DNA of 64,000 nucleotides, taken from the NCBI GenBank assembly GCA_045638265.1, contig JAZUBA010000051.1, positions 30,194 to 94,193 of the forward strand, read 5' to 3'. The position numbers and the translations under genes are program-made. Source of the DNA: Alphaproteobacteria bacterium. Its GTDB lineage: Bacteria; Pseudomonadota; Alphaproteobacteria; CAAHEQ01; UBA3637. The notes under the pieces are model-generated. The model saw only the letters and a list, made by a program, of their open reading frames with translations, searched no databases and was not told where the DNA came from. Position 1 is the stretch's first letter. Every line of letters begins with the position of its first letter. This document shows, piece by piece, positions 4,542-54,469 of the stretch.

Positions 4542-7529
4542 ATGAGATTTAGAACGCATATTAAACAAAACGAACGTGGTCGCTCAATGGTTGAAATCTT
4601 AGGCGTTTTAGCCATTATCGGTGTTTTATCATTCGGTGGTATTCAAGGATACAAGTATGCCATGGATAAACATCGGGCAAATGATATCGTCAATGAGGTT
4701 AATATGCGTGCAACAGATATTTGGCATTTATACCAAGATGGTGAAAAAGAATTGCCTGATTCACCTGAAGCAGATGCATTTCCTGAATATCCTGAAATGA
4801 CGCAAACAGGATTTGAAATTCTGGTAACATCCCATCCTCCTGTTGCATTTCGTACATGGGTGAATAATGTACCGTCTGCTGTATGTCAAAAAGTGTTACA
4901 GGAAAATTTAGACGATGCCGTTCAAGGATTAAAATTTGTACAGGTTGATAATGGTGGTGGATTAATACGCTATACAGGTGATATTGCTATTTGTGGTGAA
5001 AGTGGTACGGAAAATCAGATGGTATTTACATCGTTTCTTGATGAAGATGGTGGAGCTGTTGCCTCTCCTGTTAATCCTGATAATCCAAACACACCGTTAA
5101 TTTATTGTGTAGAACAAGATGATTGCCCGCAAGAATGTGGTGGGGCTGTATGTGAAGAAGATACCATGACATGTCGTGATGCTTGTGCAGGTACGGATAA
5201 ACCGATTTGTATGCGAGAAACTGGAACGTGTGTTGAATGTCAAACAAATGATGATTGTGCGATAGTTGGTGACAACTATGTTTGTAATACGGCAGACTAT
5301 ACATGTCAGGAAGTGCGAAAATGCGTAACGGGAGAATATCGGGCTAAAAGTGGTGCATGTATTCCGTGTGATGATATTAATGCTGTTGAAATCAGTCAAG
5401 AAAAGTTTTTCGACCTAACGTTGAATATTGAAGATGATACAACAGGTGTAGAACAATGTAATGCGTGCAACAATACGCATACAGTAACTGTTGATGAAGC
5501 AACGGGAACAACGTATTGCGGTGTTGGATGCATTAAAGGTGTAACGTATGAATCACTTAATGATGGATGTATCCCTTGTCGTAAAGCCGATGGTTCTTTA
5601 AATACGGAACCACATCGGATTAATCAAAATAATAATGCTCGAAGTATGTGTGAAGCTTGTGGTTTGATTTGGTGGAATAATTATTATTTGCAGAATACAT
5701 GTGGTTATTTTCCTACGTGTGAAAAAGGAACTTTTTTGTCTGTCGGTAGTAATCCGACCTGTGTTGATTGTAATTCTAATACTCAATATCGTGTTTCTGG
5801 ATGGGAAGGTGGCGGATATACACCATATTTTGGGTCAAGTAGTTGGAGTTCAGAAAAAATTAATGCAATATGTACTGACAATTGTCGCGATGAAAACGGT
5901 AATCCGACGCGAGAATTAGGTTCTGGTGCATTATGTAAGCCACTCTGTCAACAACCTGATGAAGATGCTTCTATTACAGCTTGTACGGATAAAGATGATT
6001 CAACCGTTTGTAATCGTCAATTCCGAAGTGGCGGAGTATGTTATGCGTGTAGTACATCAACAAGTAAATCTATTGCGACAGGAGGGACTGAGGAAATTGA
6101 TACTTATGAAGAACAAGTTTGTGTTAATTGTGGTAGAACGGTTAAAAACGGATATTGTATTATTGAAAAAGAACCTCAATTAGGGCAATTTAGGGGTAAA
6201 GACGGCAATTTATATAATTGCACGGTTAACGGAGCAGATATTGTTTCTGAAGAAGATTCTGGCTGCATAGCAAATTGTCGTCAGAAAAACGGTAAATATA
6301 GTATGGATGCAGATGCAACACCAATTCGTTGGATTCATACTTATTCAGACGGTAGTCAAAAATGTTTTAAAACATGCCCATCAAATAAATGGCAAAGTAC
6401 GGCAGGTATGTGTATGGATTGTTCACAAGATAATGGAACATATGCAACGTATTATAATATACGATTAAACGCGGATACTTGTGAAAAAGCTTGTCAAAAC
6501 ACGGATTATCCTCGTGAAAATCTTAATGGTTATTGTGTGTTACAGACTTGTCCAAATGATACGGATGGTATGGTAAAATACAGAGGAACCATGGGAGATT
6601 GTCTCCGATGTGATTATACCGGTCAGCCTGATAGGGGTGTTTCCTCAAACTCAATGATAACATCGGCTCAATGTGCCAGATGTAATAATCGAGTAGCAGT
6701 GAGAACTTGGGATTCTTGGGCTGTTTGTGCTTTAATTAATCCAGGTAGTAGTGGTGTTTGTAACAGTAAAAATGTTCAACTTCCTGAAAATATGCCGACA
6801 GAATTAAAAGCCAAAGTTCAGCCATATGTTAACGGAGATTATGATGGTCAAATGTTCCGTGATAATTCTGGGTATTGTCATGAATGTACAACATCTGCTG
6901 CACCAAGTACTTCTGCAGAGCAATGTAATATGTGCAATATTGATAAAATGCAACGTACTTATACAAACGGTGTTTGCTCGTTAGGTGGTTGTCAAACAGA
7001 CGAATTTATGAATAATACCCCAAATTGTGTCAAATGTAAGCCATCCACTGAACCGAGTTCTTATATTTCATCAACATATCAATTAAAAGCAGGTCATACA
7101 TCTTCTTGTACACAATGTGGTAATCGTCAGATTATGACAATCGGTTCAACAGGTTTGCAATATTGCGTACCGAATGATTGTATTCAAAATGCTGATTGGC
7201 AATCCGTTGCGAATGGTAAATGTCAAGATTGTACGGCAGATAATAATGTGCGTGAAATCGGTACGGAACTTGTTTATCGTCAACTGTGTGAAGCTTGTAA
7301 TCGTGTTGCATTTAGTAAGAAAAATGGTGATAATGTCAGTTGGTATTGTTCAAAAATTGTAAATGACGGTTATTTTGTTGATGCTTCTGGTGCGATACAA
7401 AGTTGTTCTTCGGCATCAGATACGATGATACCTAATACGTCAAAAGCCATTTCAGCTTGTGAAGCGGCCTCTTGCAATAGGGTCACAGAAACAGACAGAG
7501 ATGGTCAAGTTTGGTGTATGAAAAATTAA
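4542..7529 (+). CDS. Type IV pilin-like N-terminus fused to a 940-aa cysteine-rich extracellular region (giant pilin-like protein, family member 1)
   Basis: MRFRTHIKQNERG|RSMVEILGVLAIIGVLSFGGIQGYKYAM: Gly(-1), Glu(+5), ~20-aa hydrophobic helix, Tyr about +24/+27, as in class III (prepilin) signals. GGAGG SD. Remainder has ~130 Cys in CxxC / C-x-C patterns. Paralogous N-terminus to 52175 and to the fragment at 51594. Confidence 0.7.
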   Translation: MRFRTHIKQNERGRSMVEILGVLAIIGVLSFGGIQGYKYAMDKHRANDIVNEVNMRATDIWHLYQDGEKELPDSPEADAFPEYPEMTQTGFEILVTSHPPVAFRTWVNNVPSAVCQKVLQENLDDAVQGLKFVQVDNGGGLIRYTGDIAICGESGTENQMVFTSFLDEDGGAVASPVNPDNPNTPLIYCVEQDDCPQECGGAVCEEDTMTCRDACAGTDKPICMRETGTCVECQTNDDCAIVGDNYVCNTADYTCQEVRKCVTGEYRAKSGACIPCDDINAVEISQEKFFDLTLNIEDDTTGVEQCNACNNTHTVTVDEATGTTYCGVGCIKGVTYESLNDGCIPCRKADGSLNTEPHRINQNNNARSMCEACGLIWWNNYYLQNTCGYFPTCEKGTFLSVGSNPTCVDCNSNTQYRVSGWEGGGYTPYFGSSSWSSEKINAICTDNCRDENGNPTRELGSGALCKPLCQQPDEDASITACTDKDDSTVCNRQFRSGGVCYACSTSTSKSIATGGTEEIDTYEEQVCVNCGRTVKNGYCIIEKEPQLGQFRGKDGNLYNCTVNGADIVSEEDSGCIANCRQKNGKYSMDADATPIRWIHTYSDGSQKCFKTCPSNKWQSTAGMCMDCSQDNGTYATYYNIRLNADTCEKACQNTDYPRENLNGYCVLQTCPNDTDGMVKYRGTMGDCLRCDYTGQPDRGVSSNSMITSAQCARCNNRVAVRTWDSWAVCALINPGSSGVCNSKNVQLPENMPTELKAKVQPYVNGDYDGQMFRDNSGYCHECTTSAAPSTSAEQCNMCNIDKMQRTYTNGVCSLGGCQTDEFMNNTPNCVKCKPSTEPSSYISSTYQLKAGHTSSCTQCGNRQIMTIGSTGLQYCVPNDCIQNADWQSVANGKCQDCTADNNVREIGTELVYRQLCEACNRVAFSKKNGDNVSWYCSKIVNDGYFVDASGAIQSCSSASDTMIPNTSKAISACEAASCNRVTETDRDGQVWCMKN

Positions 7530-8971: not shown

Positions 8972-8973
8972 AA

Positions 8974-12581: not shown

Positions 12582-13361
12582 TTATTTCATGGCCGGAATT
12601 TTGATTTCAACAAAGTGTCCGGCAGGAATGCGTTGTTTTGCATATTGCGGATTAACCATTTGAATTGAATAATTTTGCATACCGGTTAATTCGGCTGCTT
12701 TTTTGAAAAACTTTTCGGCTGTTTCATCATATCGACTGGTATTCATGATGTATAAAAGACAAGCTTGTCCCCTATCGGTACGACCACATAATGGCATACG
12801 ATTGGTAATATCTTTATTACGAATGACTAATTTTTCAAATCCGCTACATTGTGTTTTAGGTTGTGAGCTACTACCTCCCCCCATCATTAAGCCTAATAAA
12901 AGTCCTAACATTACTGCACCACCTAATGCAATAGCAATACCTTTCATTGTTGTTAAAAAAGGCGGGATGTTATTTGCATTGGCTTGTTGTGCGTTTATTA
13001 TTTGATGAACAGGTTGAGATGCATGATGGCTGTGCATAGATTGTTGTGCTTGTTCATTTTGATATGGAACTTGTCCGCTTTGATGAGATTGAACACCTGC
13101 TGGACGAGGAGTTTGTCTCATTGGTTGACGTGGCACTTGTCCTTGACGAGAAGTTTGTCCCATTGGTTGATGTGGTGCTTGTCCTTGACGTGGAGCTTGC
13201 CCCATCGGTTGACGGGGTGCTTGTCCTTGACGAGGAACTTGTCCCATCGGTTGACGAGGTGCTTGTCCATGACGAGGTGGAATACCTGTCGGACGCGGTG
13301 CTTGATTGGAATTAAACTGTTGCGATCCATTTCCTGATGGATTTTGATTAGATTGATTCAT
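12582..13361 (-). CDS. Bitopic protein: Gln/Pro-rich repeat N-terminal region, single TM, ~90-aa C-terminal domain (hypothetical)
   Basis: Tandem GQ(A/V)PRQPMGQ(A/T)PRQ repeats, then TM GIAIALGGAVMLGLLLGLMMGGG, then a C-terminal globular region. Last gene of the co-oriented cluster 19394..12582. Confidence 0.5.
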   Translation of the reverse strand: MNQSNQNPSGNGSQQFNSNQAPRPTGIPPRHGQAPRQPMGQVPRQGQAPRQPMGQAPRQGQAPHQPMGQTSRQGQVPRQPMRQTPRPAGVQSHQSGQVPYQNEQAQQSMHSHHASQPVHQIINAQQANANNIPPFLTTMKGIAIALGGAVMLGLLLGLMMGGGSSSQPKTQCSGFEKLVIRNKDITNRMPLCGRTDRGQACLLYIMNTSRYDETAEKFFKKAAELTGMQNYSIQMVNPQYAKQRIPAGHFVEIKIPAMK

Positions 13362-13364
13362 TGA

Positions 13365-14546
13365 TTATTTCCCCCCGATTAAACGAATCAGCTTTAATTT
13401 CATAACCACTAATAATTCTGAACCGAAGCCCATTTGATCCGGAATACCGATAACGGCTAATTCATCATCAATGGCTGTATTGACACGGAATGTTGATAAT
13501 TCACCATTAGCCGAATCAATGGTAACTTGTGTGTTGATTGTATCATCATCTCTTAAATATGGGTACAATAAAACGGCTAATTGATTTTGCATATAAGGAC
13601 CTTTGGCACAACGACCAATATCAAATCTCATTTTCCAACCGTTTGGAACAACGGCAGTTCCTTCACTGATTAATGTTGGTTGATAATATTGACTGATTGT
13701 GTTTAACAATGCTTTTGAATTTTTTTGGTGCCCCATAGCAATTAATTTGCCCATTAAACCGCTTGTAGATGAATGAACTTTATCAACGCCGAATGATTGA
13801 ATAATTTGTCCCCAATCACCACCGTTAGCAATAGATGCAATGGAGTAAATTTGTGTGTCAGAAACAAGCATGCGTCCGTCTTTAACAATTTTTTCTATCA
13901 ATTCTTTAACACGAATTTCTTCCTGACGTGTTAATGTGAGTGATAATACACTGGCGCCCCAGTTTGGATTAACATTTTCAATACCAGCCCCGCGTAAGGC
14001 ATCTAAAATACCTAATATTAAAGTACGATTATTTGGTAATTTTAATTCAAAATTTCCCCGTCTTGACAGATTTAAACGTTTTTTACTGTCATCATATTTG
14101 TAATAGGTGTCACCTGCTTTTGTTAATTCATCAACAACAACGGATAGTTCGCCATAAACGTCTTTTGCGTTAAATGTAACATACGATTCGTCGTCGGTAA
14201 AGACTTCAATTTTAGCTTCTTCAAGCAATTTTTGAAGAGCAATATCCAATGCCATATTATCAAATGTATAACCATTGACTTCATAACGAGGTAATTCATC
14301 AATTTTATCAATATACGTTAATTGAAAATCATCTTTTTCATATTTAACAGAGGTAATAATCCGTTGATCTGACAAATCATCCGTTTGGCAACGATAAGGT
14401 GTTTCTATGTTTAACAATGTAACCGACTGATTTGGTTCGGGTACTGCTTGATAGAACGGATAATAATTGTAAAATTGTGCGTTTGCAACACTTGTAGCCA
14501 ATACAACGGGTAATGCAAATGTAAAAAGATGTTTCAACTGTATCAT
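13365..14546 (-). CDS. Secreted/periplasmic protein (hypothetical)
   Basis: 393 aa. Cleavable signal peptide MIQLKHLFTFALPVVLATSVANA. Start is 4 nt after the preceding gene's stop, so it is part of the operon. Confidence 0.5.
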   Translation of the reverse strand: MIQLKHLFTFALPVVLATSVANAQFYNYYPFYQAVPEPNQSVTLLNIETPYRCQTDDLSDQRIITSVKYEKDDFQLTYIDKIDELPRYEVNGYTFDNMALDIALQKLLEEAKIEVFTDDESYVTFNAKDVYGELSVVVDELTKAGDTYYKYDDSKKRLNLSRRGNFELKLPNNRTLILGILDALRGAGIENVNPNWGASVLSLTLTRQEEIRVKELIEKIVKDGRMLVSDTQIYSIASIANGGDWGQIIQSFGVDKVHSSTSGLMGKLIAMGHQKNSKALLNTISQYYQPTLISEGTAVVPNGWKMRFDIGRCAKGPYMQNQLAVLLYPYLRDDDTINTQVTIDSANGELSTFRVNTAIDDELAVIGIPDQMGFGSELLVVMKLKLIRLIGGK

Positions 14547-14658
14547 AATTTGTATCCTCTTTTTGTTAAATTGTTTTATGTTAATAAAACCTTCTATATA
14601 TTGTCATACATCATTTTTAAGTGATTGTGAAGTCTTTTTTTATTTTTTTGTCCTTTTT

Positions 14659-15897
14659 TTATGAATCATAAGGATCATCAATCATCTCAAAACCATCCGG
14701 AGCCGGTCCAAGATATTCCCTACGACTACTTGTATCTACCATACCTAACAGACGGCGAGCTTCATCTACGTCCATTTCGTCGGCAATTAATGAAGTTACG
14801 TCTGATGGAGAGTTTGCATAAGCAACTTCTAAATCTTTTTCTAACACAATTAAGCTATTTTTTAAAACATTTAAGCCGTCTTGTCTCACTTCTTCTAAAG
14901 CAGGATAATAGGTAGGTGATGATAAAACTTCTTGAATGTCTTTTTTTGCTTGTTCCATAGCATCAATTAAAAAGCCGTAATATTTATATTTGTAAATTTC
15001 AATATTGCCTAACGAAATACAACGAGCATCAATCCATGTATGAACGATATTGACAAAATCTAATTGTCTAAATGCACGCATAGCCATGAAATGTTCTTTT
15101 GTTTCAGGATGTTGTGGTTCCATAATTGGTAGTGGTTCTGCGTATTGAGATGTATTTTCATCGTAATAGGTGTCGGACTGATTGGAAAATTCAGGATGTA
15201 CATCTCCGCCTTCACCATAGTACGATTGAGCAGAGCCGTCATCAATATAGGAAGAAACGTCTTCATCATAATCATAATTATTATATTGGTCGTAATTTTC
15301 ATCAGAGGATGATGTATTCTCGCTCATTTCACCATTATCATAAGCATATCCGTCATTAGGATTATAATAGTCTTGTGTCGGAATTTCCGGATTTTGTGGC
15401 AAATCAGGAACAATGTCATAATCTGGTAAATCAGCATTTTGAGGTATTTCATCTATATCTAATGCCTGAGGTTCATCAAAGTCATCTGATTGAGGTTCTT
15501 GCTGCATCGTTTCAGGAGATGTATCATATTGTTCCATTAATGATTGTTGACGTATTTTTTCCTGTAACTGGTTGATAATATCCAATCCTGCTTGACCAAA
15601 AAAGTTTAACCAATATTCAAGTGTAGGTATCCGTTCGGATATATCAGAAACATTAAGAGGTTCTGTTTGTGCTAAATATTCCTGAACTTCACCCCATGAG
15701 AGTGTTGCACCGTAATAATGATAAGCGTGATCCAACCGCTCCTTCAATTCCGGTGTTAAATTGGGAAGAGCATCATAAATAGATGAAATCCAATTTTCAC
15801 CTAATTCTTCTGATGCAACAGTTGCAAATGAGGTAAGAGATTCTTGTTCGCCAGTATAGGCATTAAGTGCTTGAATGAGTTTTGCTGTATCTGTCAT
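14659..15897 (-). CDS. Highly acidic protein, hypothetical (start revised to the Met with an AAGAGGA RBS)
   Basis: The track ORF starts at 15951 and overlaps the upstream gene by 44 nt. The Met at 15897 (MTDTAKL...) has AAGAGGA 6 nt upstream and lies 10 nt after the upstream stop. D/E/Y/N-rich low-complexity centre. Confidence 0.5.
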   Translation of the reverse strand: MTDTAKLIQALNAYTGEQESLTSFATVASEELGENWISSIYDALPNLTPELKERLDHAYHYYGATLSWGEVQEYLAQTEPLNVSDISERIPTLEYWLNFFGQAGLDIINQLQEKIRQQSLMEQYDTSPETMQQEPQSDDFDEPQALDIDEIPQNADLPDYDIVPDLPQNPEIPTQDYYNPNDGYAYDNGEMSENTSSSDENYDQYNNYDYDEDVSSYIDDGSAQSYYGEGGDVHPEFSNQSDTYYDENTSQYAEPLPIMEPQHPETKEHFMAMRAFRQLDFVNIVHTWIDARCISLGNIEIYKYKYYGFLIDAMEQAKKDIQEVLSSPTYYPALEEVRQDGLNVLKNSLIVLEKDLEVAYANSPSDVTSLIADEMDVDEARRLLGMVDTSSRREYLGPAPDGFEMIDDPYDS

Positions 15898-15907
15898 TTT
15901 GTCCTCT

Positions 15908-18391
15908 TTATTCATCTGTATCAGCAGTTGTAGTTGGTTTAATTGGGGCAAATGGTGCTTTTGATGGTGTTGGCATTGGTTTTATACCGGCAGGTGGTTG
16001 CATTTTGAAAGATGGAACACCTGTTGGCATTTTAGGCATATTACCTTTAGGAGGTAATGGAGCCGATTTAAAAAGAGGTTTGGCCGAAGGCATTTGTGGC
16101 ATACTGAACGACGGTGGTGTTGTTGGTATTGGCATCGGCATTGCAATAGGTGTCGGAATAGGATGGTTTTCTATTGGTGAAATATTTTGTTCTTCATTAT
16201 CGTAAAATTCTTCTTCTGTTTCTTCAATTATAGGTAAATCATCACCAAACAAGACTTCGTCCATTGTTGGTTCTTCATCAAAGTCGTTAATAACGGAAAG
16301 TTGGTCATCGGCAACCGGTTCTTCATCAAAGTCGTTAATGACAGAAAGTTGATCATCGGCAACCGGTTCTTCGTCAAAGTCGTTGATGACAGAAAGTTGA
16401 TCGTCGGCAATTGGTTCTTCATCAAAGTCGTTAATGACAGAAAGTTGATCATCGGCAACCGGTTCTTCATCAAAGTCGTTAATGACAGAAAGCTGATCAT
16501 CGGCAACTGGTTCTTCGTCAAAGTCGTTGATGACAGAAAGTTGATCATCAGCAATCGGTTCTTCATCAAAGTCGTTAATGACAGAAAGTTGATCGTCGGC
16601 AATTGGTTCTTCGTCAAAGTCGTTGATGACAGAAAGTTGATCGTCGGCAATTGGTTCTTCATCAAAGTCGTTAATGACAGAAAGTTGATCATCGGCAATC
16701 GGTTCTTCTTCTGTTGGCATGTCGTCAGGAAGAGCTTCAAATGTAACAGCCGGTTCTTCTTCTGTTGGCATATCGTCAGGAAGTGACTCAAATGTAACAG
16801 CTGGTTCTTCTTCTGTTGGCATGTCGTCAGGACGAGCTTCAAATGTAACAGCCGGTTCTTCTTCTGTTGGCATGTCGTCAGGAAGTGTTTCAAAGGCAAC
16901 AGCCGGTTCTTCTTCTGTTGGCATGTCGTCAGGAAGAGCTTCAAATGTAACAGCTGGTTCTTCTGTCGGCATATCGTCAGGAAGTGCTTCAAATGTAACA
17001 GCCGGTTCTTCTTCTGTTGGCATGTCGTCAGGAAGAGCTTCAAATGTAACAGCCGGTTCTTCTTCTGTTGGCATGTCGTCAGGAAGTTGTTCAAATGTAA
17101 CGGCTGGTTCTTCTTTTGGCATGTCGTCAGGAAGTTGTTCAAATGTAACGGCTGGTTCTTCTTCTGTTGGCATATCGTCAGGAAGTGTTTCAAATGTAAC
17201 AGCTGGTTCTTCTTCTGTCGGCATGTCGTCAGGAAGTGTTTCAAAGGCAACAGCCTGTTCTTCTTCTGTTGGTATATCGTCAGGAAGTGCTTCAAATGTA
17301 ACAGCCGGTTCTTCATCTGTCGGCATATCGTCAGGAAGTGTTTCAAAGGCAACAACTTGTTGTTCGGGTAACGTTTGTTCAGGAATTGAAGTTGTATCTG
17401 TTTGGGTTACAGCAACTGTTGGAACTGTAACCACTTGAACTTTTGCTTCAGCAATTTTATCAACAACAGATGTCATTAACCGTTCAACTGTACTGTTTTG
17501 AGCTTGCATCATTGAAGCAATTAAATTTTCCTGAGAAGCTTGCCATTTTGCAAAATCATCGGCAGAAAGAGTTGGAACAGGGGAAACGGATTGCCCGTTT
17601 TCGGGCATAACAACTGGTTGAGCTTGAACTTTTGCTTCGACAATTTTGTCAACAACAGATGTCATTAAACGTTCAACAGTATTATTTTGAGCTTGCATCA
17701 TTGAAGCAATTAAATTTTCCTGAGAAGCTTGCCATTTTGCAAAATCATCCGCAGAAAGAGTTGGAACAGGGGAAACGGATTCTCCGTTTTCAGTAACAAC
17801 AGTAGGTTGAGTAATACGCTCGGATATATGTTGCATATGGGATTGCATTTCTTTCAAAGTTTGTTGCATCATTTCCGTTTGTTGACGACTGTTTTCCTGC
17901 AAAACCGTTAATGCTTGTAATAATACTTCATATTGTTTGTTATCAGTTTGCGGAATAACAATTGGGGCTGAATCGCTACCGCTGGAAACAACAGAATTGT
18001 ATGGAACAAATGGCATATCTTCATCGGGTGAAGGTAAATAACCGCTTTTTGATTCTGTTTTGACAGAGCTGTTGCTTTCTTCAGTGTTTTCTTCTGTTGT
18101 ATCAGGTGTGTTATTTCCTTTGGCGGCGACTAAATATTCGTAATATTGACGTACAGTAGGTCCCCCGACAATATCATTCATCATCATACGCACATCATCA
18201 TCGGATGCTAACAGCATTTTGTTGTATTCAGCAACAAATTCTGGCTTTAACACATAGAGTTGGCGAAACATATTAACCAACTTTTGTGCAATAAGCATTA
18301 ATGTATTATCCTGCGTTTTTTTACGATGAATAAAACTATGTAATATTTTGCCGTCTTCGTCTAATTCCGTTGCGGTATCCATTTTTGCCAA
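15908..18391 (-). CDS. 827-aa acidic protein with three classes of tandem repeats and a Pro-rich C-terminus (hypothetical)
   Basis: 9 copies of EEPIADDQLSVINDFD (48 bp). About 13 copies of EEPAVTFE(A/T)LPDDMPT (45-48 bp). 2 copies of a 63-aa unit (PENGQSVSPVPTLSADDFAKWQASQENLIASMMQAQN.TVERLMTSVVDKI.EAKVQ). C-terminal PxxP-rich tail. Confidence 0.6.
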   Translation of the reverse strand: MAKMDTATELDEDGKILHSFIHRKKTQDNTLMLIAQKLVNMFRQLYVLKPEFVAEYNKMLLASDDDVRMMMNDIVGGPTVRQYYEYLVAAKGNNTPDTTEENTEESNSSVKTESKSGYLPSPDEDMPFVPYNSVVSSGSDSAPIVIPQTDNKQYEVLLQALTVLQENSRQQTEMMQQTLKEMQSHMQHISERITQPTVVTENGESVSPVPTLSADDFAKWQASQENLIASMMQAQNNTVERLMTSVVDKIVEAKVQAQPVVMPENGQSVSPVPTLSADDFAKWQASQENLIASMMQAQNSTVERLMTSVVDKIAEAKVQVVTVPTVAVTQTDTTSIPEQTLPEQQVVAFETLPDDMPTDEEPAVTFEALPDDIPTEEEQAVAFETLPDDMPTEEEPAVTFETLPDDMPTEEEPAVTFEQLPDDMPKEEPAVTFEQLPDDMPTEEEPAVTFEALPDDMPTEEEPAVTFEALPDDMPTEEPAVTFEALPDDMPTEEEPAVAFETLPDDMPTEEEPAVTFEARPDDMPTEEEPAVTFESLPDDMPTEEEPAVTFEALPDDMPTEEEPIADDQLSVINDFDEEPIADDQLSVINDFDEEPIADDQLSVINDFDEEPIADDQLSVINDFDEEPVADDQLSVINDFDEEPVADDQLSVINDFDEEPIADDQLSVINDFDEEPVADDQLSVINDFDEEPVADDQLSVINDFDEEPTMDEVLFGDDLPIIEETEEEFYDNEEQNISPIENHPIPTPIAMPMPIPTTPPSFSMPQMPSAKPLFKSAPLPPKGNMPKMPTGVPSFKMQPPAGIKPMPTPSKAPFAPIKPTTTADTDE
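16269..16700. repeat. 48-bp tandem repeat, 9 copies (encodes EEPIADDQLSVINDFD)
   Basis: Nearly identical 48-mers ggttcttcatcaaagtcgttaatgacagaaagttgatcatcggcaacc in direct tandem. Confidence 0.85.
16701..17360. repeat. 45/48-bp tandem repeat, ~13 copies (encodes EEPAVTFEALPDDMPT)
   Basis: Units ttcttcttctgttggcatgtcgtcaggaag.gcttcaaatgtaacagccgg repeated with minor variants. Confidence 0.85.
17434..17810. repeat. ~188-bp direct tandem duplication (2 copies)
   Basis: cttgaacttttgcttc.gcaattttatcaacaacagatgtcattaa.cgttcaac...gcagaaagagttggaacaggggaaacgga present twice back to back. Confidence 0.8.
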
Positions 18392-18404: not shown

Positions 18405-19394
18405 TTAAGCAAACACAATCATAACAACACGATGTAATTTTTCAAATTCTTTTTTATGTAGCGTAAATGTTTCTGCCCGAATCGGACTTAATACAGAAAT
18501 TTGTTCCGTTGTATCGTCTAAAACAGATACTGGTAAAAATTCGTCTTCTGATGTTTGCAGTAAAGCAATATCGCCTTTTTTAGGAGCAGAGCAGGGAGAA
18601 ACAACTAAGACAGAATCAAGCGGAATAATCGGTCCTAATGCTTGAACTTTCATCCGAACGGCATACATTTGTGTATCAAATGACATGTTTGACGGACATA
18701 AAACAGAACCGATGGATTGCTCTTTGTCAATTTTGATAGCTCCGTTATCCCGTGGAAAGCCATAAATAGGAACAGTAACTTCTTGCGAATCGGCTGCTCG
18801 AATCATAAAACGACTGACCGGTAAATCATTATATCCGCCTTTGCTGGTAAAAATACCACTTTTACCTTCACTTTGTTTTAATTCGTCCAAGGCTCCGGAC
18901 ATATCTAATTCATAAATTTTAATTTGCAAGTCTTCAGGTGAAAAACCTAAGGCGTGAGCAATGTCTTTAAACGTTTTTTCATCAACTTCCCGTTGGCCCA
19001 TTTCAATACGGTGATAAACGGACAAGGTCATTTTTGCCCCTTTTGAAACCGTTTGTAATGTTAAGTTTTTTTGTCCGCGCAAATAACGTAAACCGGCCCC
19101 CATTGTTTTTAATCCGCTACCGGAGTTAATTTTGCGACGTCTGTCTTGTTCTCGTTTCCAAGCTTTAACAACTTCCGGCTGTGATGATTTTTCAGAAACA
19201 AACAGTGCTTCGGGAGGACAATCTAAAAATTTTGAAATTTTAATTAATTGGTCTTCATCTACACGACGATACCCTTTTTCAATTTTGCTGATAGCTGATA
19301 GACTTAAACCCAACATATCTGCCAAGCTCTTCATTGTTTTGCCTCGTACACGGCGAAACATTCTAATCTGATTCGGGAAAATAATTTCTTCCAT
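18405..19394 (-). CDS. Transcriptional regulator: two tandem XRE-type HTH domains plus a LexA/S24-like C-terminal beta-domain lacking the catalytic Ser motif
   Basis: HTH1 KSLADMLGLSLSAISKIEKGYRRV, HTH2 LTLQTVSKGAKMTLSVYHRIEMGQREV. C-terminal ...MYAVRMKVQALGPIIPLDSVLVVSP... resembles the S24 fold but has no GDSM. Stop is 13 nt upstream of the repeat-protein start. Confidence 0.6.
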   Translation of the reverse strand: MEEIIFPNQIRMFRRVRGKTMKSLADMLGLSLSAISKIEKGYRRVDEDQLIKISKFLDCPPEALFVSEKSSQPEVVKAWKREQDRRRKINSGSGLKTMGAGLRYLRGQKNLTLQTVSKGAKMTLSVYHRIEMGQREVDEKTFKDIAHALGFSPEDLQIKIYELDMSGALDELKQSEGKSGIFTSKGGYNDLPVSRFMIRAADSQEVTVPIYGFPRDNGAIKIDKEQSIGSVLCPSNMSFDTQMYAVRMKVQALGPIIPLDSVLVVSPCSAPKKGDIALLQTSEDEFLPVSVLDDTTEQISVLSPIRAETFTLHKKEFEKLHRVVMIVFA

Positions 19395-29737: not shown

Positions 29738-29840
29738 CGATTTCACCAAAAATCCACTTTTTACGCTAATATGACAATAACCATAAGAAACCTGCCGTTA
29801 GATAAAAATAAAAAAAAATGCAAAAAAGTGAAAAAAATTG

Positions 29841-29868
29841 TTGCAATTTAACGTACCTTTAATTACAA
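29841..29868 (+). promoter_or_regulatory. Promoter/operator module for 29911..39015 (-35 TTGCAA, spacer TTTAACGTACCTTTAAT, -10 TACAAT)
   Basis: Ends 42 bp upstream of the ATG. Preceded by the conserved block ATGCAAAAAAGTGAAAAAAATTGT (29818..29840), also present upstream of 52175. Confidence 0.65.
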
Positions 29869-29910
29869 TCATATTAGCTATGATTATTATGTTAAAAAAA
29901 AGGGGTTTTT

Positions 29911-32900: not shown

Positions 32901-35900
32901 TAATTGTGATAATGCATGGGGTTTTTGTCATGCAGATACATCACATAGCGTAGTTGGTGGAAATACAACTAATATATCTGCCAAAATAGCTGCAATGAAA
33001 GAGGCTTATGGCTCTTATTATTGTTGGGTGGATATGGATTATAATTCTTGTAGACCGTATTTTACTAATTTCAACCAAGGACTTGTAACTTTTGGTTATA
33101 GAAATAACAGATATTACGCTGTATGTGAATCTGTTTGCGAAGGCGATACCCCTGTTTGGAACGGTACGGCTTGCGAAGCATGTCCGACGGGAACACTCTG
33201 GAATGAAGCAACAGGTGAATGTGTTGCTGCTCTTTGTAAAGGTGTTGTATATGAATGTAATGACAATGCCGATTGTGATGCAGGTGAATATTGTAATATT
33301 ACATGTTATAATGATACTTGTACGAAAGATACGAGTGGTATGGGGGGAACTTGTCAAAATGCAAATGAACGCATTCAACCACCCGAGAATGGAACGAAAC
33401 CACCGTTTATAATGTCAAATCAACCAATGACATGGTGGAATGCAAATAATTTTTGTGAGGCATTAGGTACAACACTTGTAGAGGTCAGTGATTATGCATG
33501 TGCACATAGTATATGTCCAAGCGGATGTGACGCTACATATGGTTATTGTCATGCGGATCCATCGCAATCAGTGACATTATCCTTTGCCACAAATGATCGA
33601 ACAGCGAAACTACAAGCGATGTATGAAGCCTATGGTAGTAATATTAGTTATGGGTGGACAAATACGGATACTGACGACCTTTGTTACGCATATAACGTTA
33701 GCTTCTATCAAGGTGGTATGTTTAATGGTCTTCGGTATAGTAGCGTTGTTAATGCTGTATGTAAACCAGATTGTGCAGCGACTGATGTAACAAAACCATA
33801 TTGGACAGGTACATCTTGTGAAGCTTGTCCGACAGATACATTTTGGGATGCAGAAAAAGGCGAATGTGTTGACATGCCAATTTGTGTGTTGAATAATTGT
33901 CGCTGGACCGGTTGGATAGATAGATCTCAGCCGGAAAGTGATAATACTGGTGGTGACTATGAAACATTAGATGGTCTTTGTGTAAGTGGTAAAATACAAA
34001 ATATTTCTTGTCGTTCAGTGTGGTTCCCGAATACATCTCTTGATGATTTGGATCAAGTTCTTGAAAGCTGCGATACAGTAAATGGTTTAGTTTGTCTTAA
34101 TGAGAAAAATTATGTTTCTGAACCAGGAGGGCCTAGACCTCCGGGTATGGCTTGTTACAATTATGAAATCAATGTTTTTTGTTGTAGTAATTGTAAAGAA
34201 TGTACGGCCAATACAGATTGTCCTGGTGATTACCCATATTGCGATAGTGGTGTTTGTATGCCGTGTCCAACGGGAACACCTGTTTGGAACGGAACATCTT
34301 GTGAAGCTTGTCCAATGGCAACACCGATTTGGGATTCTGAATTAGGTCAGTGTGTCACTTGTGCCGAAGCCGATAGCACAAAACCAGTTTGGAACGAAGA
34401 AACGAACCAATGTGAGGCTTGTCCTACTGAAACTGTTTGGGATGATGAAGCAGGAGTATGTATCGTACAACAGTGTAAGGGGGTTGTATATGCCTGTAAT
34501 GATAACAATGATTGTGGTGCAGGAGAATATTGCGATATAACATGCTATGATAATCATTGTACGGAAGATATGAGTGGTATGGGTGGAACATGTCGGAACG
34601 TACAAGATGATTTAAATGATAAGTCAGAAGAGGAACCATTCTGGGTTTCGGATAGATATATGAATTGGTGGAGTGCTAAAAACTTCTGTCAAGGGTTAGG
34701 GAAACAAATGATATCCCTTGATGATTTAGAGTGTGCACATCCAATGGAGCTTCATGGATATTGTCATGAAGATACATCAACAGATGTTATTTATTATAAT
34801 CCATTAAACATATCAGACAAAGTATCGAGAACATTTAATGCTTACGGTTCTATTTGGGGCTGGATGGAAAGTGATAGCTATGCTCCTGACAATTGTTATA
34901 CTCGTATGGTTAATTTTAGTAATGGATACGTTCGGTTCCATTTGAGATATATTGTTGGCGGATACGCTATTTGTAAAGACCGACCTGCTTGCCCGACAGA
35001 AACACCGTATTGGGATGGTTCAGTTTGTGTAGCCGAATGCCCGAGTGATAAGCCTGTAATTGGTGAAAACAACGTTTGCGAAGCCTGTCCAGCTGATAAA
35101 CCTGAGTGGACAGGTACAGAGTGTATATATTGTCCTGATACATCTACATGGGATGAAGAATGGAATGCTTGTACATTTACGATTGAATTGGAATCTTATT
35201 CTGCATGTAATAATGATTGTGGGGCTTCGCAGGTTGTAGAAAAATTTTCAGTAAGCAATTTAGAAGCATCGTATGATACTTATTTTACAGGATATGCTGA
35301 CGACTGGTTCTGGATTTGTGAATCATATTTAAGTAATTTAGATCCGAAAAATGAATGTATGAAATACAAATATAATATGGGCTTGAGAGCAGGCGGAACC
35401 AAAACAAACATGTTTATGGGTATAACTTATGCAGGAGAAGGAGCTACAAAAGGATATTGGCACTCATATCAAGGTATTATGAGAATTAATGGAACAATGA
35501 CGTTTGTTTATAATCCAGATATTAAAATGGGAGAATATTGTCCGGTTGGTTATTATTGCTCGTCGGATGGTAACTCAGTTGCAACACAGTGTATAAATGA
35601 AACCATTACAGAAAATATTGCTGAAACTGATTGTCACGTTTGTGATATCCGTTTCTGGAGAGAGGATGATGGTTCTTGTATCTACTGTGAAACTGAAGAT
35701 ACTCAAACCAAGATTGAACAATCCGAATGTAATCGTTGTACAAATAGATTCTGGAAGGATAATAACTATTGTTACCATTGTTCAATTTCGGGAGTGCAAT
35801 CAGGTATCATGCAAAATGAATGTGAACGGTGTAGCAATAGATATTGGCTTGAAACAAATGCAGAAACACATATTGGTTCTTGTACTCTCTGTCCGGATGG

Positions 35901-38900
35901 ATTGACACGGGATAATGCAACAGGGCTTTGTGTTTGTGATGAAGGATTGGTTTTCAATCTTGGTACTAAAAAATGTGTCTCCTGTACCGAAACAACGGGA
36001 AATTTCTCATCAACAGAATTGTCAACGGAACAAAGCTGTCCAGCAACACGATTCTATGCAAATGATGAAAAATCATATTTGTGTAGTGGCACGGGAACAT
36101 ATCCAGTAACAACAGAAGAAAACTGTATGGTTTGCGGTGATGATGTAAATCGTTTCTGGAAGAGTAAAAATGGCTATTGTATCAGTTGTAATTATTCCAC
36201 AGCTGTTGCAGAAACAACCAAAGAAGAATGTTTAACTTGTGTTAACAGATATTGGACAGAAACCAATGCGACAACAGGGATTGGTAAATGTACGAAATGT
36301 GCTGTTGGTCAAGTAGTCAATGCTGATGGTACGGCTTGTGTCAGTTGTGCAGAAGCAGACAGCACAAAACCGGTTTGGAATGGTACGGCTTGTGTCAGTT
36401 GTGCAGAAGCTGATAGCACAAAACCAGTCTGGAATGGCACGGCTTGTGAAGCATGTCCGACGGACAAACCTACTTGGAGTGGTACAGAGTGTTATAACGA
36501 AGCAACAGCACAAAATTGTCAAACAGCGATGACATCAGCCGGATTTAGCACTTCCAAATTCACAATGGATGGAACAACTATTAAATACACAGGCGATATG
36601 ACTCTTTCAAAAGATTTGGATATTTCAGCTTGTAATTTAGATGTTGTCGGTACATTAAAGGTAAATTCGGGTAAAACATTGAAAGTTAATAATGTCAAAG
36701 CTGAAAGTACTGGTATTTATAGCATATTTAACAGCGGCACAATTGAAGTAACAAATATAACGGGAATAGCAACGGGAACAGCATCTTATGGCATCCATAA
36801 TACTTCTGGCACAATAGAAGCAACGGGTGATGTGATGGGAACGGGAACTGCTACTGGTATAAATAACTATGGTGCAATAACAGCAACAAATGTGACGGGA
36901 TCGGGATCGGCTTATGCTGATGGCATCTCTAACGTTGGCACAATAACAGCAACGGGCGATGTCACTGGAACGGGAAATTATGGCATCTATAACAATAGGT
37001 CAGGCAAAATAACAGCAACAAATGTGACGGGAACGGGAATTGGAACTAATGGCAATGGTTCTGGCATTCAGAACACTGGCACAATAGAAGCAACAGGCGA
37101 TGTGACGGGAACAGGAACAGGAGTTTTTTATGGCATCTATAATTCTGGCACAATAGAAACAAGGGATGAAGTGACGGGAACAGGAAATCAATATGGTATC
37201 ATGAATACTGGCACATTAGAAACAACAGGTGATGTGACGGGAACTTCAACGGGAACAGGAAGCTATGTTTATGACATATCTAACAGTGGCACAATGTCTG
37301 CAATTAATGTTTACTATTGTAGAGCGATTAAAAATACTGGCAAAATCATTGGTCATATCCAATGTAAATGTCCTGAAGGCATGTCATGTCCGGCAACAAC
37401 AATTACACAATGTACGGCACCGACACCAGTCTTGTCAGGCAATTTGACAACTTGTGTGGCTTGTGCAACGGCAGACAGCACAAAACCAAACTGGAATGGT
37501 ATGACTTGTGAAGCATGTCCGACAGAAACTCCTGCTTGGAACGGCACGGCTTGTGAAACATGTCCTGCAGAAACTCCTGTTTGGAACGGCACGACTTGCG
37601 AATCTTGTCCGTCGGGTACGTCTTGGAGTGGTACAGAATGTATTGATATGAATGCGTTCAATTGTCAAACAGCGATGACCTCGGCTGGATTTAGTACTTC
37701 TAACTTTACAATGGAAGGAACAACCATTAAATACACTGGTGATATGACTGTTGCAACAGATTTAGATATTTCGGGCTGTAACTTGGATGTTGCCGGTACG
37801 TTAACGGTTAATGGTACTTTGGAAGTTAATAATATCAATGCAGAAAGTTCCGGTGATAAAGGTATTGATAACTATGGTAGAATAATTGCAACAGGTAACA
37901 TCACGGGAACGGGAACCAGTGAGGGTGTATATAATAATGGTGGACAAATTGAAGCACAAAATATTACAGGAACGGGAACCAACTATGATGGTATATATAA
38001 TGCTGGTGCTATGGATGCTCAAAATATTACAGGAACCGGCGGTATGTATGGTATAGAGAACTTTGGTGGTTTTATAACAGTAACAGGAGATATCTCTGGA
38101 ACGGGAAATTATGATGGCATCTATAACTGGATTGGCACAATGTCTGCAACAAATGTTTATTATTGTCAAACGATTAACAGTACTGCTGGTCAAATTATAG
38201 GTAATGTTGCTTGTGGATGTTCTGATAGTTCAAGTTGTACGTCAGACGTAATGCAATGTACTGCGCCGACACCAATTTTGATAGGTCTTGAATCTTGTAT
38301 CAGTTGTGCAGATGCTGATAGTACAAAACCATATTGGAATGGTACGTCTTGCGAAGCATGTCCGACGGACAAACCTACTTGGAATGGAACAGAGTGTGTT
38401 AATGAAGAAATAATAGCACAAAATTGTCAAACAGCGATGACATCAGCCGGATTTAGTACTGATGACTTCACAATGGACGGTATAACCATTAAATACACAG
38501 GCTATATGATTGTTTCAACAGATTTGGATATTTCTGCTTGTAATTTAGATGTTGACGGCACGTTAATTGTTAATTCAGAAACGACATTGAAAGTTAATAA
38601 TGTCAAAGCTGAAGGTGAAGGTTCAGACCGTGGCATCAGTAACTATGGAGGCACAATCAAAGCAACAAATGTGATGGGAAGTGGTAATAATTTTGGCATC
38701 TATAATGGTGAAAGAGGCACAATAGAAGCAACAAATGTGACGGGAACGGGAACCAATGTTAATGCTGATGGCATCTCTAACGATGGCACAATCAAAGCAA
38801 CTGGCGATGTAACGGGAACGGGAACGGGAACTGATAGTAAAGGCATTAATAACGATGGTACAATAACAGCAACAGGTGATGTGACTGGAATAGGAAATGA

Positions 38901-39015
38901 TTTTTTTGGCATCGATAATGATGGCACAATAACAGCAACAAATGTTTATTATTGTGCAACGATTTATAATAGTGGAACAATTAATGTAACGCCTCAATAC
39001 TTGTGTCCTCAATAA
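29911..39015 (+). CDS. Giant pilin-like protein, family member 3 (3034 aa): pilin-like N-terminus, shared ~150-aa domain, WNGT-rich Cys repeats, four C-type-lectin-like modules, EGF/CxC-rich regions, three C-terminal beta-helix-like TGTG-repeat units
   Basis: ...ECG|RSMVEMIGVLVLIGLFTIGGVVGYKTAF... Uninterrupted 9105-nt ORF. Repeats CxxCP..TP.WNGT.C x~40. Modules with YWWSA.NFCQALG...ECAH...GYCH...AYG...WGW...A(I/V)CK x4. Three units starting QNCQTAMTSAGFST and filled with (I/V)TGTG..YGI.N.GTI.AT repeats. Confidence 0.7.
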   Translation: MFNIFKNKDFLCFNADSENAQSKSDMTTKQECGRSMVEMIGVLVLIGLFTIGGVVGYKTAFDTYRATSIMDTVLKGKLAVEADYRVAGKSTLVRAINNGPIADVNDKVEYYTEVACGNRQCKEYVIKTKEPAGVCEKIVLRQSLYNSSDESDNTPEIYITPNNIEDCGEEGEVDMTFTFQIPMLKAGDGSDVYEPVDGTLQESTCPAGQIIIDGVCQCRPACDRGEGVCVCCNTGYEYDNETKSCICPAGTHDTGSDCITCENGTKWDETKKQCENPCTDGKIWNGTTCIDLCSGGKEWDSSANTCVCPEGTNDNGESCVTCSAPKTHWDNELNKCTCPTGFVERNGTCERKPTCTEPRTVYDEASNTCQCPSERPEYDEDKNTCNCPEATPYWDSTKNQCVTCVVGNSNTPVWNGTSCVSCAGADNTKPYWNGTECISCYANNPTTPYWNGTNCTTCPNTTPVWNGTACVSCAEADSTKPVWNSTECVACPTETPYWNGTSCVSCYDNNQTTPYWNGTNCTVCPDAKLWNTESNQCVQCLDNENCSGSTPVCNDNNVCESCPDVMPIWHTDMKQCVQCLENEDCNDNATPVCNNSNMCESCPDAMPVWHTDMKQCVQCLENADCPTGTPVCNATNACEPCPDETPIWVAETGKCIASDGPSGDGSCNDNSDCSVGEYCDITTWGTSKDYCTTDTSNMSGTCRNATDDIQSPNSGTTPAFVISNRPMYWWSANNFCQALGKVLAEVSDFECAHTICPECSSGTCPDGCDGYYGYCHQDDSLGLTTSDGVNISPIVVQMTNAYGNLWGWLNTKYNDCMAYDISLQSGEVNRYNRKGTNPAICKDRPSCPIETPYWNGTECTTCPIETPYWNEETDQCEVCPAETPIWDGTTCIEGYVCKGTTSECQTNNDCTQLYGSGYYCNIECFTDHCSTETTSLGGSCRKAISDVKEPNSGTTPPFVMSSEKMYWWSAKNFCQALGQRLVDVTDYECAHAICPDDNCDNAWGFCHADTSHSVVGGNTTNISAKIAAMKEAYGSYYCWVDMDYNSCRPYFTNFNQGLVTFGYRNNRYYAVCESVCEGDTPVWNGTACEACPTGTLWNEATGECVAALCKGVVYECNDNADCDAGEYCNITCYNDTCTKDTSGMGGTCQNANERIQPPENGTKPPFIMSNQPMTWWNANNFCEALGTTLVEVSDYACAHSICPSGCDATYGYCHADPSQSVTLSFATNDRTAKLQAMYEAYGSNISYGWTNTDTDDLCYAYNVSFYQGGMFNGLRYSSVVNAVCKPDCAATDVTKPYWTGTSCEACPTDTFWDAEKGECVDMPICVLNNCRWTGWIDRSQPESDNTGGDYETLDGLCVSGKIQNISCRSVWFPNTSLDDLDQVLESCDTVNGLVCLNEKNYVSEPGGPRPPGMACYNYEINVFCCSNCKECTANTDCPGDYPYCDSGVCMPCPTGTPVWNGTSCEACPMATPIWDSELGQCVTCAEADSTKPVWNEETNQCEACPTETVWDDEAGVCIVQQCKGVVYACNDNNDCGAGEYCDITCYDNHCTEDMSGMGGTCRNVQDDLNDKSEEEPFWVSDRYMNWWSAKNFCQGLGKQMISLDDLECAHPMELHGYCHEDTSTDVIYYNPLNISDKVSRTFNAYGSIWGWMESDSYAPDNCYTRMVNFSNGYVRFHLRYIVGGYAICKDRPACPTETPYWDGSVCVAECPSDKPVIGENNVCEACPADKPEWTGTECIYCPDTSTWDEEWNACTFTIELESYSACNNDCGASQVVEKFSVSNLEASYDTYFTGYADDWFWICESYLSNLDPKNECMKYKYNMGLRAGGTKTNMFMGITYAGEGATKGYWHSYQGIMRINGTMTFVYNPDIKMGEYCPVGYYCSSDGNSVATQCINETITENIAETDCHVCDIRFWREDDGSCIYCETEDTQTKIEQSECNRCTNRFWKDNNYCYHCSISGVQSGIMQNECERCSNRYWLETNAETHIGSCTLCPDGLTRDNATGLCVCDEGLVFNLGTKKCVSCTETTGNFSSTELSTEQSCPATRFYANDEKSYLCSGTGTYPVTTEENCMVCGDDVNRFWKSKNGYCISCNYSTAVAETTKEECLTCVNRYWTETNATTGIGKCTKCAVGQVVNADGTACVSCAEADSTKPVWNGTACVSCAEADSTKPVWNGTACEACPTDKPTWSGTECYNEATAQNCQTAMTSAGFSTSKFTMDGTTIKYTGDMTLSKDLDISACNLDVVGTLKVNSGKTLKVNNVKAESTGIYSIFNSGTIEVTNITGIATGTASYGIHNTSGTIEATGDVMGTGTATGINNYGAITATNVTGSGSAYADGISNVGTITATGDVTGTGNYGIYNNRSGKITATNVTGTGIGTNGNGSGIQNTGTIEATGDVTGTGTGVFYGIYNSGTIETRDEVTGTGNQYGIMNTGTLETTGDVTGTSTGTGSYVYDISNSGTMSAINVYYCRAIKNTGKIIGHIQCKCPEGMSCPATTITQCTAPTPVLSGNLTTCVACATADSTKPNWNGMTCEACPTETPAWNGTACETCPAETPVWNGTTCESCPSGTSWSGTECIDMNAFNCQTAMTSAGFSTSNFTMEGTTIKYTGDMTVATDLDISGCNLDVAGTLTVNGTLEVNNINAESSGDKGIDNYGRIIATGNITGTGTSEGVYNNGGQIEAQNITGTGTNYDGIYNAGAMDAQNITGTGGMYGIENFGGFITVTGDISGTGNYDGIYNWIGTMSATNVYYCQTINSTAGQIIGNVACGCSDSSSCTSDVMQCTAPTPILIGLESCISCADADSTKPYWNGTSCEACPTDKPTWNGTECVNEEIIAQNCQTAMTSAGFSTDDFTMDGITIKYTGYMIVSTDLDISACNLDVDGTLIVNSETTLKVNNVKAEGEGSDRGISNYGGTIKATNVMGSGNNFGIYNGERGTIEATNVTGTGTNVNADGISNDGTIKATGDVTGTGTGTDSKGINNDGTITATGDVTGIGNDFFGIDNDGTITATNVYYCATIYNSGTINVTPQYLCPQ
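30001..30220. repeat. Inverted repeat arm (5' coding region of the plus-strand giant gene), partner of 29375..29593
   Basis: See partner arm. Together they flank a ~410-bp spacer containing both promoters. Confidence 0.7.
36510..39012. repeat. Three tandem, diverged, in-frame repeat units (~1140, ~760, ~590 nt), each starting QNCQTAMTSAGFST...
   Basis: Unit starts at ~36510, ~37655, ~38420 with >85% nt identity over the first ~150 nt. Each unit ends with VYYC..I.N. Confidence 0.7.

Positions 39016-54469: not shown

Follow-up and report, generated by a model that had tools for sequence, protein, structure and literature searches.

A dispersed family of giant proteins with predicted type IVb-like pilin modules and adhesin-type C-terminal parts in uncultured gut Alphaproteobacteria

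Our analysis concerned a stretch of 64,000 nucleotides from an alphaproteobacterial genome (assembly GCA_045638265.1, contig JAZUBA010000051.1, positions 30,194 to 94,193; hereafter the window, G+C content about 35%) that encodes four very large proteins with type IV pilin-like N-termini, named p995, p1292, p3034 and p764 here (Table 1). Open reading frame (ORF) translation recovered all four complete ORFs with exactly the positions and lengths reported in an earlier reading of the DNA made without database searches (the sequence-only reading). All four N-termini consist of a hydrophilic leader ending in Gly, followed by RSMVE(I/M)(L/I)GVL..(I/V)G(V/L)(L/F)(S/T).(G/A)..(Q/I/V)GY. In four of four ORFs this amounts to G↓RSMVE (the arrow marks the putative cleavage site), a run of some 16 hydrophobic or small residues, and GY. 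The motif given earlier holds in the four ORFs except at one position, where p3034 has Thr instead of Ser, and the leader lengths in Table 1 replace the range of 11-35 residues stated then. Among the positions invariant in an alignment of the four proteins are G-1, R+1, S, M, V, E+5, G, V, L, G14 and Y24; Glu+5, Gly+14 and Tyr+24 are canonical positions of type IV pilins such as Neisseria PilE. The features of a class III signal, namely a hydrophilic leader with Gly or Ala as its last residue, Glu at +5 and a stretch of some 21 mainly hydrophobic residues, were found in each of the four ORFs. A degenerate DNA pattern for GRSMVE(I/M) matched exactly these four sites in the window against a chance expectation of 0.11, and a general search (G/A/S-x4-E-hydrophobic) revealed no other pilin-like N-terminus there. 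The one truncated copy noticed besides the intact genes was recovered by tblastn with the N-termini (60-65% identity to those of p995 and p764). Since its leader ORF lies in another frame, Asp replaces Gly-1 and the reading frame stops after about 50 residues, we regard this fifth copy as a remnant.

Table 1. Positions of the pilin genes and associated features in the window and, in the last two rows, of machinery genes in related loci (aa, amino acids; nt, nucleotides).
Feature	Position	Strand	Details
p995, putative modular pilin	4542-7529	+	995 aa; leader M1-G13 (13 aa); pilin module to about residue 165 (nt 4542-5036)
p1292, putative modular pilin	25796-29674	-	1292 aa; leader 29 aa; then pilin module, Cys-rich region, ephrin-receptor-like repeats
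p3034, putative modular pilin	29911-39015	+	3034 aa; leader 33 aa, or 8 aa from internal Met
p764, putative modular pilin	52175-54469	+	764 aa; leader 11 aa, pilin module, Cys-rich region
Truncated, frameshifted pilin-gene remnant	~51594-51874	-	divergent from p764; reads ...EHD↓RSMTEMLGILAVIGVLSIGGVQGYRYAMNKYH... then stop
Promoter/operator module, p995	4333-4503		arms 4333-4362 and 4474-4503; 111-bp spacer; proximal arm TGCACA-16-TACAAT
Shared promoter/operator module, p1292/p3034	29709-29869		arms 29709-29738 and 29840-29869; 101-bp spacer
Shared promoter/operator module, remnant/p764	51909-52141		arms 51909-51938 and 52039-52068; third arm 52112-52141
Inverted repeat, 5' coding ends of p1292/p3034	29252-29599 vs 29998-30345		blastn 84% over 351 bp
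Ephrin-receptor-like Cys-rich repeats in p1292	25799-27997	-	about residue 560 to end; Pfam PF07699, E 9.8e-19, 8 stretches
Four C-type-lectin-like modules in p3034	31906-32445, 32617-33129, 33253-33765, 34492-34980	+	predicted fold; aa 666-845, 903-1073, 1115-1285, 1528-1690
Mucin-2-type WxxW domain in p3034	33904-34182	+	aa ~1332-1424; PF13330
Three Gly/Thr-rich beta-helix-like blocks in p3034	36508-39012	+	read from translation; aa ~2200-2480, 2585-2770, 2835-3034
Tandem array in p764	53060-54310	+	477-bp (159-aa) unit, 2.6 copies, 82% matches
A24 prepilin peptidase	L073 2966-3670		234 aa; 6 kb from a pilin-like gene; Peptidase_A24, E 1.6e-14
T2SSE ATPase	L068 16431-18314		6 kb from a pilin-like gene; PF00437, E 2.7e-28

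The likeness of these N-termini to pilins, proposed earlier from the signal, was borne out by profile and fold evidence, and it appears to extend to an entire module. With residues 1-170 of p995 as query we retrieved 146 relatives, many of them only 150-270 residues long and with the same GRSM(V/I)E start. These short relatives carry precomputed Pfam assignments to Bundlin (PF05307) and PilS (PF08805), both type IVb pilin families. A profile of the giant-type N-termini matched a profile of the short paralogues with 99.9% probability (E 4.5e-36, 110 columns), and the match runs through the head domain to a conserved Cys. When compared with the PDB, the short-protein profile hit bundlin (1ZWT, E 9e-17) and TcpA (8e-6), with weak scores for PilS, CofA and other pilins (E 0.003-0.13); the giant-type profile alone matched TcpA weakly (E 0.93). 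The type IVb link of the window proteins is therefore transitive, leading from the giant-type profile to the short paralogues and from these to PF05307/PF08805 and 1ZWT. An AlphaFold model of p995 residues 1-176 (predicted local distance difference test, pLDDT, 82.6; predicted template modelling score, pTM, 0.72) shows a helix of 52 residues (14-65) and, after it, a sheet of five strands, i.e. the alpha1 helix of about 50 residues packed on an antiparallel beta-sheet head that is expected of a pilin. The whole head, including its Cys pair, is conserved and confidently predicted, and Glu5 and Gly-1 are invariant across an alignment of 34 giant-type N-termini. Based on structure prediction and remote homology, the first ~165 residues are predicted to be a type IVb-like pilin module.

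The Cys-rich sequence described earlier for the region after this module was confirmed, with 7.8-10.1% Cys in the proteins, and the suspicion that these C-terminal parts are of adhesin type was strengthened by the occurrence of a C-type-lectin-like fold and of Mucin2_WxxW and Ephrin_rec_like domains. In p1292 the ephrin-receptor-like repeat region has a 168-bp tandem periodicity and a weak PDB match to EphB2. The largest protein, p3034, is predicted to contain four C-type-lectin-like modules, each preceded by a small Cys knot, and its WxxW domain is a full-length match to PF13330 (E 7.5e-14, 52.6 bits against a cut-off of 22.4). Further towards its C-terminus lie three blocks of the type 'GTG..GI.N.GTI.ATGDVTGTG' with Cys-rich linkers between them, which may adopt a beta-helix fold; Pfam and PDB sequence searches gave no match for them. 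Long 'PxWNGTxC' Cys-rich repeats without family match are also present in p3034. As a separate observation, the P(V/Y)WNGT.C repeats (31100-31500, 36300-36500) hold an N-x-T sequon in nearly every unit. In p995 the pilin module is followed by a Cys-rich region of about 830 residues without family match, and the C-terminal parts of both p995 and p764 consist of unclassified Cys-rich repeats. PDB sequence searches with the C-terminal parts of p764, p1292 and p3034 returned nothing significant. Pfam searches with isolated segments gave no match for the C-type-lectin-like module, the p995 repeats, the p764 repeats, p3034 residues ~1755-1884 or p1292 residues ~443-574. Domain boundaries and Cys patterns are intact. 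A pilin module joined to a domain that is not pilus-specific, which is how modular pilins have been defined (PMC8179133), is what we found in the window proteins.

The divergent neighbours p1292 and p3034 carry their 5' coding ends as an inverted repeat, the core of which spans 75 codons with 89-95% nucleotide identity. Within this block, which begins at G-1, 68 residues are identical and 58 of the 68 use the same codon, compared with only 7/22 to 17/30 in other paralogue pairs. Past the core the identity is 57-76%, after alignment column 150 it is about 30%, the leaders are unrelated, and over ~415 residues the two proteins share 42%. They had been described as almost identical over the first ~150 residues, whereas near-identity is limited to about 75 codons from G-1. 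Of the gene conversion or cassette-like shuffling proposed for the pair, homogenisation of the 5' ends is supported at the codon level, but not over the ~150 residues claimed. The shared codons, the unrelated leaders and the downstream divergence together indicate that the alpha1-coding block of the inverted copies was recently homogenised by gene conversion.

Upstream of every pilin gene copy in the window we identified a conserved module with two inverted, near-palindromic 30-bp arms, ATTRYAATTAAASGTACSTTWAWDTGCAAC, which lie 100-111 bp apart at three of three loci (12 matches against 0.01 expected). Read outward, an arm forms a sigma-70-type promoter, TTGCAA-17-TACAAT, with the palindrome AAASGTACSTT in its spacer. 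In the module of p1292/p3034 each arm reads TTGCAA-17-TACAAT in the outward direction, and the spacer between the arms is asymmetric, with an A-tract on the p3034 side; in the remnant/p764 module the third arm reads TTGCAA-17-TACAAT towards p764. In the divergent pairs the A-tract adjoins the promoters of p3034 and p764. A purine-rich, ribosome-binding-like stretch was seen by eye upstream of three starts. Family members in other metagenome-assembled genomes (MAGs), single genes among them, are preceded by similar promoters and by paired arms whose starts lie about 134 bp apart; the module was found at the related loci L017, L030, L045-L047, L051, L055, L077, L080 and L081. A metagenome scan with the promoter arm TAAASGTACSTTWAWDTGCAAC returned four unrelated contigs, none of them with pilin genes.

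Inverted repeats flank a promoter-bearing segment at the three window loci, and the arm core resembles what we take to be the consensus of the Bacteroides fragilis Mpi repeat. Furthermore, single genes with either orientation of the module occur in different genomes. This is compatible with an invertible element, but a fixed divergent promoter/operator combined with loss of the partner gene explains it equally well. Simple inverton repeats were rejected as a description of the arms. Because every arm is nearly palindromic and forms a sigma-70-type promoter when read outward, no inversion is needed to account for the data; two divergent promoters with an operator suffice. The module could be a looping operator or an invertible element. 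By Pfam, none of the annotated window ORFs has a recombinase domain, and a search with a loose resolvase motif gave no hit in the window or in the related loci covered by it. No Rfam family matched anywhere in the window, so that the upstream module is no known riboswitch or leader. Two proteins encoded nearby might act as regulators at the palindromic promoter site. One has an S24 peptidase domain (LexA/CI repressor protease family; 24119-24787, plus strand) and lies some 1 kb past the 3' end of p1292; the other, further upstream, is a double HTH_3 protein (18405-19394, minus strand).

The window genes belong to a very large family. A profile search of 1.84 billion cluster representatives returned 6246 proteins at E<=1e-3, 5299 at E<=1e-10 and 565 at E<=1e-30, which puts the family at no fewer than 6246 clusters at 50% identity; many of the best 150 matches are 880-1117 residues long. 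Arg at +1, noted earlier as a departure from the usual Phe or Met, was found in 228 of 229 family members fetched and is no peculiarity of these genes but a near-invariant hallmark of the family; the median leader has 11 residues, and the pattern of leader and Glu+5 likewise recurs in the 229 members. Scanning one genome per species, we found at least 571 related stretches, nearly all in MAGs of uncultured Alphaproteobacteria from animal and human gut. Lengths were surveyed in the best 80 of these stretches together with seven earlier loci (107 genes, 90 of them complete). Mature lengths of the complete genes run continuously from about 115 to 1143 residues, apart from one 61-residue fragment, and the remaining 17 genes are cut at contig ends, one of them beyond 1633 residues. 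A single MAG can hold many copies (SIG53 has at least 16), with long and short forms side by side. A gene at L080 (918-2189, 423 aa) consists only of the pilin module, a Thr/Glu/Pro-rich mucin-like linker and one C-type-lectin-like module, and hence represents the modular logic in minimal form. The window can be placed in the same lineage, as its queA region has 74% DNA identity to two related MAGs and L008 and L011 contain orthologues of p995 whose match includes the pilin end as well as the C-terminal one. Family proteins are labelled 'hypothetical' or unnamed, and literature searches for the motif, the family and pili in this lineage found no report among the papers covered. In this uncultured alphaproteobacterial lineage, which is widespread in animal and human gut, the family is apparently the main repertoire for surface variation.

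The family genes do not form compact pilus operons. In the window as well as in five homologue contexts they are orphans among housekeeping genes, and the other window genes are housekeeping and eukaryote-like ones (queA, mnmE, yidC, rnpA, dnaJ, mutY, ClpB-like, MlaA, MlaC, four mTERF, Sel1, ankyrin). It had been supposed that the assembly machinery is encoded elsewhere. This is supported in so far as an A24 peptidase and a T2SSE ATPase, both outside the window, are conserved in related genomes, but no platform protein was seen in about 1.15 Mb of related loci. The A24 peptidase forms a conserved family of 228-236 residues in related MAGs, contains the A24 domain alone and always occurs in the order A24-rodZ-prfA-prmC (L073; L092 10001-10711). 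The T2SSE ATPase family is likewise conserved in the clade and always divergent from rimP-nusA-infB (also L094 and L095, from 10001). Each is a single gene amid housekeeping genes, and for a type IV filament system such dispersal is unusual. From the conservation of both families we conclude that the lineage possesses a prepilin peptidase as well as an ATPase of the type IV filament kind, scattered in the genome like the pilin genes themselves.

We favour, with moderate confidence, the reading that the giant proteins are modular type IVb-like pilins that are cleaved at G↓R and carried by a filament of short pilins, where they would serve as lectin-type adhesins at the tip or in low abundance. 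A class III signal peptide would insert each protein into the inner membrane, and a family-specific A24 prepilin peptidase would cut between Gly(-1) and Arg(+1). Cleavage would leave a pilin module composed of an alpha1 helix of about 52 residues (Glu5, Gly14, Tyr24) and a beta-sheet head with two conserved Cys, which may dock into a type IV filament of short (115-260 aa) GRSMVE pilins of the same family, presumably driven by the T2SSE-type ATPase of the clade. Disulfide-rich C-terminal chains of 600-2850 residues cannot pack in the body of a filament, and the giant pilins would for this reason most likely be tip subunits of low abundance that serve as adhesins and bind glycans and proteins of the host or of microbes. 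With many paralogues in each genome, alternative tips would be available. Each gene would be transcribed from its own copy of the TTGCAA-17-TACAAT promoter, and the recurrence of this promoter with the palindromic AAASGTACSTT site at each gene suggests a common regulator.

Several results weigh against this reading. The Pfam N_methyl model, suggested earlier as a check, scored 14.8 bits for the N-terminus of p995 and 11.7 bits for that of p764, below the curated cut-off of 21.2, and did not match p1292. Pfam Bundlin and PilS gave no direct match on the window proteins, no pilin family was found by Pfam or NCBIfam in the whole window proteins (only NCBIfam hit PRK10506, E 0.024), and all structural evidence consists of predictions. 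To our knowledge Arg at +1 has no characterised precedent, which leaves cleavage at G↓R unproven. By Pfam annotation the window contains no prepilin peptidase, ATPase, platform protein or secretin, and it has no short major pilin. In about 1.15 Mb of related loci, motif searches and tblastn with the E. coli proteins HofB and HofC as queries yielded one peptidase (L073) and one ATPase (L068) only, and no platform protein was found there with HofC as query; no secretin was seen, the related loci being covered only by a loose motif and not by a proper search. NCBI gives the name TadA to some ATPase homologues, as would suit a Tad system with its tiny Flp pilins. Finally, passage of a folded, disulfide-rich chain of about 320 kDa through a secretin would be hypothetical.

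Some of these points would suit other explanations. The TadA names together with the orphan position of the ATPase gene, the short peptidase (228-236 aa) with an A24 domain alone, and the dispersal of the machine genes, unlike type IVb operons, could be reconciled with a pseudopilus similar to a type II secretion system (T2SS) or Tad system, from which the A24-processed proteins would be secreted as self-carrying substrates or shown on very short fibres. We hold this to be unlikely, as the pilin head is by sequence and fold closest to type IVb major pilins and not to GspG-K or Flp, and bundlin-like short paralogues are abundant and could form a real filament. The sub-threshold N_methyl scores, the very large cargo and the fact that the genes are never clustered with pilus machinery would also be expected of a pilin-derived membrane anchor without filament, that is, a relic module which is uncleaved or non-polymerising and leaves the chains periplasmic or exposed on the surface in some other way; the sequence Arg-Gly-Arg followed by a hydrophobic helix suits a positive-inside signal anchor as well. 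Such an anchor seems rather improbable to us. Against it stands the conservation of the whole, confidently predicted head with its Cys pair and not of the helix alone, and invariant Glu5 and Gly-1 (34 sequences) along with Arg+1 (228/229) are hard to explain without a specific peptidase and helix packing. Short paralogues of canonical size occur in the same genomes, and a periplasmic location would give lectin, mucin and ephrin-like modules little purpose.

That the genes are decaying or artefactual (pseudogenes, assembly chimeras of repeats or non-expressed relics) is very hard to believe. One copy is clearly a pseudogene and repeat-rich genes of this family often break assemblies, as seen for 17 of 107, but at 35% G+C chance would not be expected to leave ORFs of 2.3-9.1 kb uninterrupted, the p995 orthologues in L008 and L011 match at both ends, and domain boundaries and Cys patterns are intact; each gene, moreover, has an intact promoter-like site, and three starts a ribosome-binding-like stretch. 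A more far-reaching version of the modular-pilin reading, which we put forward as speculative and consider improbable, is an undescribed type IV filament of gut Alphaproteobacteria that combines a G↓R peptidase specificity and dozens of giant pilin-fused, eukaryote-like adhesins with switching between divergent pairs by DNA rearrangement. Switching would proceed by inversion of the ~100-bp A-tract segment between the arms, or by recombination of the homogenised inverted alpha1-coding ends. One machine would then present, in a phase-variable manner, one of many tips of up to ~320 kDa.

Other parts of the window contain further unusual genes. Four consecutive genes of the mTERF family, which is typical of eukaryotic organelles, are located at 46549-51451 on the plus strand (281, 436, 480 and 432 aa; E 6.5e-6 to 1e-27), and a Sel1-repeat protein (2724-3734) and an ankyrin protein (61509-62249) are encoded in their vicinity; the three kinds of proteins together suggest a host- or protist-associated lifestyle. 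Four ORFs on the minus strand at 12582-18391 (259, 393, 430 and 827 aa) have no Pfam match and were rejected as candidates for pilus machinery, there being no supporting match of any kind. The 393-residue protein has a hydrophobic N-terminus that by eye resembles a secretion signal. The 827-residue protein contains highly acidic tandem repeats of 16-17 residues (48-/51-bp arrays, 16269-17354), and its gene lies in a region of locally raised G+C (0.416 at 16001-18000). A 751-residue ORF without family match (59098-61353, minus strand) holds a 144-bp tandem repeat (60412-60903, 3.4 copies, 97% matches).

The G↓RSMVE signature offers an annotation handle for a family that is missed by curated pilin models, and it points to a testable peptidase specificity. 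Judging from the C-type-lectin-like and WxxW modules, the proteins may bind host mucus or glycans directly, which makes the giant pilin genes candidates for a role in gut colonisation. For experiments, the 423-residue gene of L080 provides a compact construct.

BfpA, TcpA, CofA and PilS (PF05307, PF08805) are the best relatives of the N-terminal module in both sequence and fold. As in the giant proteins, their residue at +1 is not Phe and the length of the leader is variable; they are single-module proteins of 150-200 residues, and the window proteins are linked to them only via the short paralogues. The tip-located type IVb minor pilins CofB (enterotoxigenic E. coli) and TcpB (V. cholerae) occupy the position proposed here for the giant pilins. 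However, CofB and TcpB have about 400-520 residues and are encoded once per operon, inside the pilus operon, whereas the giant pilins are 2-6x larger, multi-copy, scattered among housekeeping genes and equipped with eukaryote-like Cys-rich modules. A conserved N-terminal part with variable C-termini is also known from the PilV adhesins of the R64 thin pilus, which are varied by a shufflon, and from the sap system of Campylobacter fetus, which uses promoter inversion. Opposed copies flanking a promoter, as in p1292/p3034 and remnant/p764, belong to the same likeness, which is architectural only, as a recombinase, an alternative orientation of the locus and sfx-like sites within the genes were not found here.

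Alternative pilin units with variable end domains that are used by one type of pilus and change its target specificity have been described for the Kil (Tad) pilus of Myxococcus xanthus, in which interchangeable minor pilins form the 'Tips' (Herrou et al. 2025, PMC12075869); for the giant pilins such an exchange is proposed from the genes. The Kil 'Tips' are multi-protein complexes of moderate-size minor pilins on the Flp filament of a predator, while the present case concerns a single giant polypeptide in a gut alphaproteobacterium. Modular type IV pilins were established by Raynaud et al. (2021, PMC8179133), with Streptococcus sanguinis PilB (vWA, i.e. von Willebrand factor A, module) and PilC (lectin module) as examples. 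Their survey listed more than 1200 modular pilins with 264 architectures, predicted presentation in the filament, probably at the tip, and named a protein of 860 residues as the most extreme multi-domain case. The earlier statement that a 3034-residue pilin-like protein has no precedent needs to be modified accordingly: relatives of 880-1117 residues are common in metagenomes, and 3034 residues are an extreme of the same principle. Like PilB and PilC, the giant proteins have an N-terminal pilin module with one or more adhesive modules grafted to its C-terminal side. The surveyed pilins were defined by the IPR012902 motif, whereas the window proteins fall below the Pfam cut-off, and in contrast to those pilins they have 764-3034 residues, up to a dozen or more modules, Arg at +1 and a type IVb-like head, with at least 16 copies in one MAG. 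If displayed on pilus tips, they would take the modular-pilin idea far past the 860-residue case of 2021, and a pilin could bear lectin, mucin-type and receptor-like modules strung together in a long chain. Modular pilins as such are already known and are taken further by the giant pilins; new are their extreme size and number of modules, the eukaryote-like nature of the modules, the near-invariant Arg at +1, the dispersed multi-copy layout and the dedicated promoter module.

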